NCBI RefSeq assembly: GCF_041248615.1 | Contig: NZ_CP158426.1 | Length of the DNA stretch: 64,000 bases | Origin: Escherichia coli | GTDB taxonomy: Bacteria; Pseudomonadota; Gammaproteobacteria; Enterobacterales; Enterobacteriaceae | Direction: 5' to 3' (one strand) | Part shown: positions 13,901 to 16,900 of the stretch, one piece after another | How the letters are laid out: the number at the start of each line of letters is the position of its first letter | Numbering within the stretch: the first letter of the stretch is position 1 | Program-made: the position numbers

Positions 13901-16900
13901 CTTTGTGATTGGTCCGTTATTTTCTGGCTGATATTTGAGCGTATAACAGTGTTATACAGTGGTATACTGTATGGATATTACTCACTGATATGGTCTTTGC
14001 AATGAGCAAATCTAATCTGATCGCGTTCCGCATCCCATCTGAATTGCAGGATGAGTTTAATCGGTCTGTTCTCGCTTCTGGAGGGGATAAAACCTCCTGG
14101 CTTGTTGATGCGATTCGCATGAAGCTGGGACAGCCGGAAAAGTCTATTGATTCACGAATGCTTGGGCTGGTGGAGCGCATGGAAAAAGCCGCAGCATCGC
14201 TTATTGCCGGAAAGCCGAACATCCCACCAAAGCCATATAACGAAACGGCAGTTATAAAGATCATTGCCGATACCATCCGACAGGGATTTGATAATGGGCG
14301 TGTGATAGCGGAACGGCTCAATGAAGCAGGCTACCAAACAAAAGCTGGTAAAGCGTGGGATAAAGACATTTACAGCGCGTGGAAGCGTCAGGGTAACAAT
14401 ATTAAAAGAATCAATACGCTGCTTCAGTAATTGATCAGTGTATAAATGATATTTATCGCTCAATCGCTCCCTTTCCGCCCTTCAGCTACAGGGTCGTTGT
14501 CGGCGATAACAAAACCTAAGTCCTGAGAGAATCTCTCTCGTGGGAATCCTTTAGCAGGTAAACCCATTGAATCATATCCACATCCGGGAACATTTGGTTT
14601 AGAGTCAATAAGGTCTGCAATTTGCCGAAGCCATGTTGATCCCGGACCAAGTCGTTTAACTAAGTACCAGATAATACAGATCGCGCTAAAAATCCTCTCG
14701 CAACTCTCTGGATGGAGATTAAGTCCGTCAAAGTATTCATTATCCGGTACTGGAACTCGGGGATGCTTTCTATTCCATATTCTGGAATGGTGAGCGCAAC
14801 GATTCCTTATGAGATTAAGGCACTTCAACCATTTTGCAAATGTCTGCTTATTATCAATGCCAAAACGACGTATAATTTTCCCCTGCATATGACCATTAAG
14901 CATCGCATAATATTTAGACATCTGACCAAAATCCCAGGTCTCCACCGCCACCCAAAATGGAATCTCCTTGCCTTGGCTTCGATGCCATTCAATACAGTCA
15001 TCTCTGCTTTCGTCTAATTTTACTTTTTGCTTATACACCCAATGCTCGAAGGCAGATGAGAATTTTGGATTAATGTATTTTGATGACATGTAGGCAAGTG
15101 GATCATTGCGACCAACCTCATGCGCGATGACTGAACGAACATGAATCTCTATTCTTTCGATAGCATCAATCATCAAAAGACGCAGTTTTTTGTCAAAAAG
15201 ATATAGATCGTACGTCTTCTCGAAACTGGTACCAGCAAGAAATCGGTCTGTTCTGTACGAAAGACCTTTATCTGTTGTCGCAATAATTCTTGATGGGTAC
15301 CAAAAACCTGACAATCGATAATATCCAACCTGCGACAGCTTACGTATCGCACGATTTCGATCATTGATAATCATGCCACGTTCAAGTAGCAATCCTAGCA
15401 ATTCGTGATAGTCCTTATGAGGCTTTGCGGCAATCATAGTGGCGAAACAAAAGATAATAAAAGGCCCGACCGTGAAACTCACATGCCTGAAATCGGCGGC
15501 GGAGAAACAGAGGATCGGGCTCGGTTGCCTGTAACTCTATCCGAAGTTATCCACATGTCAATGCACAGTTACTTAGGAAACTAACATAGATACTATCATC
15601 ACTCACGAAAAACCACTATATGTGGTTTTTATTCATATTGTTATCCACTACAGGCTGTGTCAATAACTTTTACCTATTAATTGGGTAATTTCTACATTTT
15701 CCTATGCTGGCTAGTTTCTCTACTGAAAAGTTGGCACTCCTTAATCGCTTTTCGGTTAATACTATCGGTCTTCATATTGCCAGCAGCATACGCCATCCGA
15801 TAATTTCTATGCTACGCGCGCGTACTTGTCGCAAAATATCAGGCAAAGGCCAGATTCAGAACGTCGTGATAACCACCAGCACAACATGAGATGTCATGTA
15901 ACGCGATTTATCACACCAGATACATGTGATTGGTGTACCCGCATAAAACATCGTCATAGCGCGTCCTGTGCGCATATACGCCGATAATCAACACATCACC
16001 ACCACTCTGTCTTATGTAGAGAACAGTTTTATGGTGCTCCCCGCCATCGTGTGCGTACTGGTCGGACGTAGTTGCAAAATTTTTTGCAACTGATACCCCT
16101 CGCGCGCGTACTGGTCACGAAATTGGTGTTTTGCTGTGGCAGTGATATCAGAAAAATCTTCCTGTTTCACATAAAGCGGATATGCGCGTACTGTAACGGC
16201 CCCATCAACTGGGAGCGGATTTGAAATCCCGACCCAAGCTATGTACCAAATGCCATGTCTTGGATATATGATGATTGCCATTCTAAACAACGCTAAAGGG
16301 AGGGTTGGTGTGAATCAATTGAAGCGATTGGTTGTCTCCGGTTTATTATTTGCTTCTTTTGGAGCGAACGCTGAATGCTGGATTATTGGTGATCTGAAAG
16401 GACAAGAAGCCTCAAGTTCAGATGGGTATAACTATAAGTTATCATCTATACCAGATACCTTTCATTTGGTAATAAGTAAAGAGAAGGCGGATCTTATCTT
16501 GGCAAAAGATGGTATAGGTGGAGGTATTGATTATTACCCGCTATCTCCGAATGCCATGATGGGAAGAAGCTATCGAGATGGTCAACTGACGCTTGTCACA
16601 TGGGCAATCTCAAATGACGGAAAAGTGATCCATACACGAACAATTAGTCGATCTGATATAGGCTCATTTACAGGCTCATTTGTCGGCAATGTTAAAGGCA
16701 AGTGTTAATGTTCATAACTATTTGAAAAAAATACTAATTACTATTATAACCAACCATCCATGGCCATCTGTTATTGAGCTTCCTTTTGCGATGCTTGTGC
16801 TGCTGTGGTCAGTGATTGTGTGACCGTACTGATCGCTCTGTCATATGCTGTGCTACCTTTTGGCGTATTTGCCAGACGTAACAAGGCATTTCGTATAACA

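Follow-up and report, generated by a model that had tools for sequence, protein, structure and literature searches.

Multi-box pac regions are present in phages SPP1 (pacL and pacR) and P1 (pac hexamer repeats). Satellite elements hijack packaging in several ways: the Staphylococcus aureus pathogenicity islands (SaPIs) with a small terminase (TerS) and pac of their own, Escherichia coli phage-inducible chromosomal islands (PICIs) with Rpp and cos, and P4 with the P2 cos, beside a cargo hotspot. PMC9026076 deals with how PICIs are packaged. Many pac phages, Sf6 among them, have pac inside terS, the TerS gene, as stated in a passage of bioRxiv 10.1101/851345 that cites Leavitt 2013, and the pac of P22 is a 22-bp site within the P22 terS gene (PMC9611059). 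TerS recognition of pac remains unclear (bioRxiv 10.1101/851345); the binding in vitro is weak and largely sequence-independent, and "multiple points of contact" are described for the SPP1 pac (PMC9611059). The subject here is a repeat array in a 64,000-nucleotide stretch of the E. coli NRZ14408 chromosome (the window), where it lies in an integrated island that looks like a phage satellite. The long copies of the array match a short stretch of the terS genes of Sf6-type phages, and the array may mimic a phage pac site and recruit the terminase of a helper phage, a reading that we favor tentatively. The terS identity of the repeats, as judged from sequence comparison, is new and moderately interesting.

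The repeat array and its match to phage terS

A repeat search found five same-strand copies of the 10-mer GCGCGTACTG at 15818-16193, each with at least 9/10 matches: GCGCGTACTT at 15818 (copy 1), GCGCGTCCTG at 15959 (copy 2), GTGCGTACTG at 16051 (copy 3), and GCGCGTACTG itself at 16104 (copy 4) and 16184 (copy 5). The start-to-start distances are 141, 92, 53 and 80 bp, and copies 1 and 4 show 87% identity across 23 nt (CGCGCGCGTACTKGTC.C.AAAT). The 8-mer GCGTACTG occurs 10 times in the window versus 1.33 expected, a number reached in 0 of 100 shuffles. With up to 2 mismatches, the 14-mer CGCGCGTACTKGTC occurs 5 times (0.72 expected), 3 of the 5 lying inside the array as first reported, and the same search exposed a sixth copy at 13145-13158. 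Tandem Repeats Finder detected nothing. The array is real and non-random, and the cluster of direct repeats with a palindrome described in the original prediction for this DNA is confirmed, with arms of 10 bp in the palindrome. These arms are nearly invariant among 29 variants, the central 2 nt being variable; the palindrome is missing from natural forms with a 53-bp deletion and is therefore dispensable for retention of the conserved block that holds the array.

The lead to terS came from exact searches with the 23-mer of copies 1 and 4. In species-representative genomes, there were 6 unrelated hits (the block itself was not among them), one of which is an in-frame match within a Neisseriaceae gene that belongs to the Sf6_terminase family (PF20901). 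The long copies (1, 4 and 6), in their minus-strand reading, give the F-R-D-Q/K-Y-A codons of Sf6-type terS; the TerS of Sf6, a P22-like phage, reads AKHEDFRDKYAK, and the block minus strand AKHQ-FRDKYAR. The terS gene of an E. coli P22-like prophage, which has a Terminase_3 large subunit and a portal of the P22 type, contains the 18-nt minus-strand core of copy 4, TTTCGTGACCAGTACGCG, without a mismatch (18/18). In Sf6 terS, 17/18 positions agree with copy 4 of a related island (L009) and 14/14 with copy 1 (GCGACAAGTACGCG), and copy 6 is matched at 16/18 by a third type of terS. Each phage has one copy, versus five in ~380 bp of the island block. Possible helpers are at hand: 232 of 5,426 E. 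coli genomes carry a terS of the Sf6 type.

A 30-nt scoring matrix was built from phage terS genes only, with no island sequence, using the 72 distinct genes of 80 Sf6-type loci from IMG/VR (L062-L141). In the 64-kb window it hits three sites and no others, each of them on the minus strand: copy 6 (25.9 bits), copy 4 (23.3 bits) and copy 1 (14.2 bits). With a matrix of the 18-nt core, copies 4 and 1 score 29.4 and 27.2 bits. A shuffled 19-kb island gives 0.17 hits on average. The layout is also conserved across related islands: the same three hits are found in 12 of the 15 other islands scanned. The remaining three have two hits each, L005 because of a copy-1-to-4 deletion, and L009 and L049 with the perC-side copy not found in the available sequence. 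The copy-6 equivalent adjoins perC in every island examined. The copy-6 unit aligns to 16101-16175 over 75 nt with 71% identity (E = 1e-4), and the perC-side copy has two alleles, LVFRDKYARA and QQFHEQYARA, which differ at many bases and both score 26-27 bits. Polymorphisms of the island copies sit in the Arg codon and the Q/K position, codons that are variable in terS too, and the F-C-D variant of copy 1 is found in real TerS proteins.

Within the phages, the F-R-D-K/Q-Y-A stretch itself appears to be constrained as DNA (or RNA), since it shows the top synonymous constraint in terS. Among 35 terS genes less than 95% identical, FRDKYA is the 6-codon window of highest synonymous-codon identity (0.73 versus a mean of 0.49, permutation p = 0.015); nearly fixed codons are GAC (65/67), TAC (71/72) and GCG (64/68). 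A second, weaker cluster of synonymous conservation lies ~15 codons downstream (I-F-E-E-x-F), and both clusters are candidate cis-acting sites inside terS. The codons for E-F-S-D-I in the APSE-1 small-terminase gene, P17 (L142 8531-8947), TTTTCGGACATC, are matched 12/12 beside copy 6 (13186-13197) and 10/12 beside copy 4 (16143-16157). Each long unit may carry two terS-like boxes, ~32-36 nt apart.

Table 1. Features of the array and its surroundings, in window coordinates
Feature	Coordinates	Strand	Remarks
Copy 1, long	15813..15842	-	Minus strand CTGATATTTTGCGACAAGTACGCGCGCGTA = L-I-F-C-D-K-Y-A-R-V; holds 12-bp palindrome TACGCGCGCGTA
Copy 2, short, degenerate	15959..15971	+	GCGCGTCCTGTGC; 9/10 to the 10-mer; invariant among 31 variants
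Copy 3, short	16051..16063	+	GTGCGTACTGGTC; begins a 53-bp unit
Palindrome	16070..16091	.	AGTTGCAAAA-TT-TTTTGCAACT; arms 10/10 complementary; A/T-tract center
Copy 4, long	16099..16128	-	Minus strand CACCAATTTCGTGACCAGTACGCGCGCGAG = H-Q-F-R-D-Q-Y-A-R-E
Copy 5, short	16184..16196	+	GCGCGTACTGTAA; 10/10 to the 10-mer
Copy 6, diverged paralogue of the copy-4 unit	13141..13213	-	Downstream of perC; 30-mer 13141-13170 = Q-Q-F-H-E-Q-Y-A-R-A
Conserved non-coding block, core holding the array	15806..16224	-	Extends to 16315 in this island type
Reverse-strand open reading frame, 92 amino acids	16012..16290	-	Not a maintained gene
Secreted-protein gene	16310..16708	+	Matches phrog_2651; signal peptide judged by eye from the translation

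The conserved block and its variation

The conserved unit that bears the repeats is larger than the interval first reported (15820-16200): a mosaic block of 420-510 bp (15806-16224/16315). Of the 5,426 complete E. coli genomes, 544 have its core at ≥95% identity; the core occupies several different positions in the chromosome and is found in Salmonella too. Every occurrence is within one island family with the order integrase, primase, P22-like ejection genes, block, variable defense cargo, perC. The surroundings had been called AT-rich, which is wrong: GC content is 45-47.5% across the array and 0.45-0.475 over 15700-16299, similar to neighboring genes, and falls to 37-38% only at 15500-15799. 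No phage DNA or protein matches to the block were found, and in a short-query search the palindrome matched T4-like gp11 genes only, by chance.

The left edge of the block is sharp at 15806, with Abi, two small genes or an AlpA-type gene to its left, depending on the island; the right edge is at 16224, 16235 or 16315. The 16315 edge falls just past a GTG start with its ribosome-binding site, and is followed by the secreted-protein gene or, in other islands, by an unrelated gene for a membrane protein with four transmembrane segments (4-TM). In islands with the edge at 16224 or 16235, a minus-strand gene and a different gp16 type come next. Because the flanking genes change between islands, the block is not merely the promoter of the secreted-protein gene, nor merely its leader, and the link to that gene made in the original prediction is incidental, other islands having the membrane-protein gene or no plus-strand gene in its place.

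These same edges bear on the suggestion that the repeats are operators, through which an island or host DNA-binding protein would control the neighboring cargo or the secreted-protein gene. Direct repeats and a perfect palindrome do sit between divergent or variable genes, a promoter-like site is present at 15777-15804, in two island types the end of the block coincides exactly with the ribosome-binding site and start codon of the gene downstream, and genes for DNA-binding proteins are nearby; candidate binders are a 146-amino acid protein (13990-14430, ribbon-helix-helix-like N-terminus), PerC and an AlpA-type protein. However, the promoter-like consensus match lies beyond the conserved block and is not shared by all island types, the block core is retained where no plus-strand gene follows, the spacing is irregular (53-141 bp) with one copy 1.4-2.7 kb off, and the terS identity is left unexplained. 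Operator function, one of the three roles first proposed, thus receives no positive support and is improbable.

Among the 43 loci there are 31 distinct block variants, with ~57 substitution columns, seven independent 1-nt indels, and natural deletions of 53 bp (copies 3-4) and 286 bp (copies 1-4). This variation speaks against a real small protein gene on the reverse strand (92 amino acids here, 105 or 126 elsewhere) of which the repeats would be a by-product. Intact 105- and 126-amino acid forms do exist, and the 54-nt difference keeps both in frame. But the frame and stop position vary, with at least seven endings: the reading frame is full length in only 12 of 42 loci and ends at one of at least six other places in the rest. 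The motif copies fall in different frames, and no ribosome-binding site is seen by eye. The frame has no Pfam or NCBIfam match, its relatives among 1.84 billion representative proteins are near-identical copies of the same DNA only, and in a RefSeq record where it is intact (L002) no coding sequence is annotated over the block. Some long metagenomic "proteins" of this frame read TGA as Trp and therefore look like genetic-code artefacts of gene callers. A ParE/RelE toxin pseudogene, the first impression given by the minus-strand translation, was rejected since no Pfam or NCBIfam match was obtained at E ≤ 10. A coding role is highly unlikely, in line with the earlier calls that the stretch is non-coding and the 92-amino acid frame spurious.

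The block is no more convincing as a known or unusually structured RNA. Rfam gave no match over 15500-16400 at E ≤ 1, and the fold stability is ordinary (z = -0.45 and -0.53). Both results, together with the lack of a plus-strand gene or promoter after the block in some islands, weigh against an antisense function, in which a plus-strand transcript, for example the leader of a downstream gene, would use its several seeds to silence incoming phage terS mRNA at the FRDQYA region. The plus strand does exactly complement 18 nt of terS mRNA, and the island already has C4-type and isrK antisense/regulatory RNAs. The perC-side copy, however, is on the perC coding strand, so that read-through from perC would be terS-sense. 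Silencing of this kind seems to us very unlikely.

A more substantial rival is that the array is a relic without function, left by the decay of a coding sequence (terS-like or other), parts of which slippage or unequal recombination had duplicated. It would have persisted because the island family is young and the block provides a stretch of homology for exchange of the flanking cargo. In a single minus-strand frame, the differences between copies 4 and 6 are of the synonymous type (FSDIT; F-R/H-D/E-Q-Y-A-R), the 53-bp copy-3 unit looks by eye like a tandem duplicate of the copy-4 unit, natural deletions between copies occur, indels are frequent, and all the blocks are ≥95% identical, so that no deep conservation argues for function. 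On the other hand, no other terS remnant is detectable around the copies, and the block position differs from the place of terS in P22-like genomes. The three long copies each keep exactly the most constrained stretch of phage terS, and the perC-side alleles retain their matrix scores although diverged elsewhere. Decay alone does not predict copy 5, which has a perfect 10-mer without flanking similarity (apart from ~14 nt with one gap, its flanks resemble no other copy by eye). A full-length decayed terS was rejected: hhalign aligns 10-11 columns only, at a probability of 4.5-14%, and there is no Sf6_terminase Pfam match; with the similarity limited to 10-11 residues, the block is not such a gene. 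We consider a relic origin without function rather unlikely. If it is correct, the array is a curiosity only, marking a recombination junction at a cargo hotspot. A recombination site, also proposed earlier, is seen here only in the passive sense of deletions between copies and a mosaic junction.

A candidate packaging site on a satellite-like island

The reading that we favor, with the reserve already expressed, is that the array is a multi-copy mimic of a pac site, or a TerS-binding decoy, for phages with an Sf6-type TerS. Its sites would have been copied from, or converged on, the short terS stretch encoding F-R-D-Q/K-Y-A, which is placed at the end of the TerS DNA-binding domain. The Sf6 pac is reportedly in the part of the gene that encodes this domain. 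The host would be a satellite-like island with an integrase, primase, origin and P22-like ejection proteins of its own and genes for neither capsid nor terminase. A P22/Sf6-type helper phage would induce and replicate the island, the TerS ring of the helper would bind the look-alike pac sites, and the helper large terminase would begin headful packaging on island DNA. Several sites in the same orientation (three long, three short) would raise the avidity for a multi-subunit TerS ring, and the A/T-tract center of the palindrome may bend easily. The same TerS binding could equally make the array a decoy that interferes with the phage. We infer that the stretch is the recognition core of TerS, that its island copies are bound by TerS too and mark the place where packaging begins, and that these phages have the island as a satellite.

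Several observations fit this scheme. An island that encodes no terminase depends on a site acceptable to the terminase of a helper, and the motif copies a stretch of the very gene in which pac of this phage type lies; the packaging site named in the original prediction therefore has indirect support. The replication origin is already explained by a different array, which supports the packaging-site reading of the repeats. Around an AT-rich core at 22054-22168, immediately 3' of the primase gene, GTTGGTTCA/GTGTTGGTTCAA occurs three times, followed by inverted TGAACCAAC three times; this is probably the origin. That the repeats at 15.8-16.2 kb are themselves the origin iterons is extremely improbable. 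They are direct repeats, and the element does have a TOPRIM/DUF927 primase-helicase, but a textbook array already stands beside the primase gene, and these copies are irregularly and widely spaced at 45-47% GC, have no AT-rich core and lie 6 kb from that gene. Relic and function may also be combined: in one scenario, the ancestral island had a terS gene that decayed except for its pac boxes, which were retained and increased in number. The reading-frame traces shared by the copy-4 and copy-6 units fit this scenario.

A number of points weigh against a pac mimic. The terS similarity spans only ~18-30 nt, a profile comparison aligns just 10-11 residues, and in a pan-genome such as that of E. coli it is no rarity for an 18-mer to find a match. 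Copies 2, 3 and 5 retain only 10-14 nt and have no terS-matrix score. The FRDKYA codons are at the edge of the part of terS that encodes the DNA-binding domain, and the synonymous constraint on them could have another cause. The motif is not clearly more conserved than the rest of the block (6 of 65 motif positions variable versus ~14% overall), and the blocks, all ≥95% identical, are so young that conservation says little about function. The extended island motif was not found in known phage records. The ejection proteins of the island are closest to those of APSE phages (gp20, 52%), and the APSE terS is a different subtype, with EFSDI instead of FRDKYA.

The island occupies 12.8-32.1 kb of the window, inserted between dinD and yicC. 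The dinD promoter has a LexA-box-like palindrome, CTGTGTTTATATACAG, at 12775-12797; it lies immediately beyond the left end of the island and places the island boundary after ~12800. The repeat ATGTACAC, within ATTATGTACACCYYTATGTACACG, occurs at both ends (13038, 13050, 32051 and 32063 on the plus strand, 32026 on the minus strand), probably as arm-type sites of the integrase, and is absent in islands with other integrases. Array copies were rejected as integrase arm sites since the ends bear this different repeat. Both the chromosomal site and the integrase differ among related islands. The genes include those for a tyrosine integrase, AlpA, AntA/B, Ash and the TOPRIM/DUF927 primase, the P22-like proteins gp14 (DUF2824), gp7, gp20 and gp16, and then, in order, the small secreted-protein gene, the repeat region, the Abi_2 gene, the 146-amino acid protein and PerC. 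The island has no capsid or terminase gene and no satellite TerS or Rpp-like gene. Rfam matches to C4 antisense RNA (80 bits) and isrK (63 bits) stand side by side at 27370-27558 on the minus strand, within a gene annotated as ash-family, a short way downstream of the antirepressor gene.

A variable cargo hotspot with defense-type genes separates the perC-side copy from copy 1 (13443-15806, with equivalents in L002, L004 and L018). This island has Abi_2 in the hotspot, L018 has ImmA/IrrE, L004 has a pair with Panacea domains, and L002 has, near perC, a Dcm methylase and an HNH nuclease. The 146-amino acid protein (plus strand), beside perC, is conserved in most islands; by eye, its N-terminus reads as ribbon-helix-helix and its C-terminus as a recombinase-like helix-turn-helix, and a weak phrog_30270 match is the only supporting one. 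DnaA-box-like sequences, TTATCCACA at 15547-15555 and TTATCCAC at 15641-15648, are found in the AT-rich stretch upstream of the Abi gene. The secreted-protein gene, which corresponds in position to P22 sieA, probably starts at GTG 16310 and not at the annotated upstream ATG, with the ribosome-binding site AAGGGAGGG at 16296-16304. The basis is that conservation of the block stops shortly past this GTG and that other islands continue with a different gene; there the 4-TM membrane-protein gene (L009 3275-3625) uses the same ribosome-binding site and start codon.

As a whole, the island looks like an undescribed satellite-type element; no description of this island family was found in the literature. 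A bolder proposal is an undescribed family of E. coli/Salmonella phage satellites that brings its own P22-like ejection proteins and would capture the headful terminase of its helper through a multi-copy pac mimic copied from terS. We regard this larger claim as doubtful.

Comparison with known packaging systems

If the pac mimic is real, it shows how a common island, present in ~10% of complete E. coli genomes and carrying changing anti-phage cargo and the PerC regulator, could be mobilized by P22/Sf6-type phages. The shared core TTT-NNN-GAC-NAN-TAC-GCG would then pin down the so-far undefined recognition core of the Sf6-type pac. It is a concrete, testable candidate for what Sf6-type small terminases recognize.

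The closest parallels are the pac sites internal to terS, in P22 gene 3 and Sf6 gene 1. Like them, the island sequence is a short asymmetric DNA, identical or nearly so to a terS stretch that is under DNA-level constraint in phages, and its presumed reader is the helix-turn-helix ring of TerS. Unlike them, it lies outside any terS gene, on a terminase-free element, and is present in three long and three short copies where the phage has one. The P22 pac sequence itself is unrelated to the island motif (PMC9611059). The pseudo-pac sites of host chromosomes, which P22 uses in generalized transduction (PMC11226127), are likewise non-phage DNA resembling pac and able to start headful packaging, but they are scattered chance look-alikes, whereas the island has a clustered same-orientation array kept in a mobile-element family. 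With the multi-box pac regions of SPP1 and P1, the array shares short repeated boxes over 100-400 bp and bendable A/T-rich DNA; those regions belong to other phage families, have other motifs and are located on the phage itself. Origin iterons of plasmids and satellites are also direct repeats of a 10-13 bp motif, but the array lacks their tandem phased arrangement beside an AT-rich core and a replication gene.

Among satellites, SaPIs, PICIs and P4 face the same need as the island: a capsid-less integrative element must offer a site acceptable to the helper terminase. The island differs from SaPIs and PICIs in having no TerS or Rpp-like gene of the satellite's own. We know of no description of a packaging site that serves a pac-type terminase and is copied from coding sequence of the helper. 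The putative packaging site, like that of P4, adjoins a variable region of defense cargo. A helper pac copied from terS and multiplied would, if true, be a packaging-hijack strategy beyond those of SaPIs, PICIs and P4.

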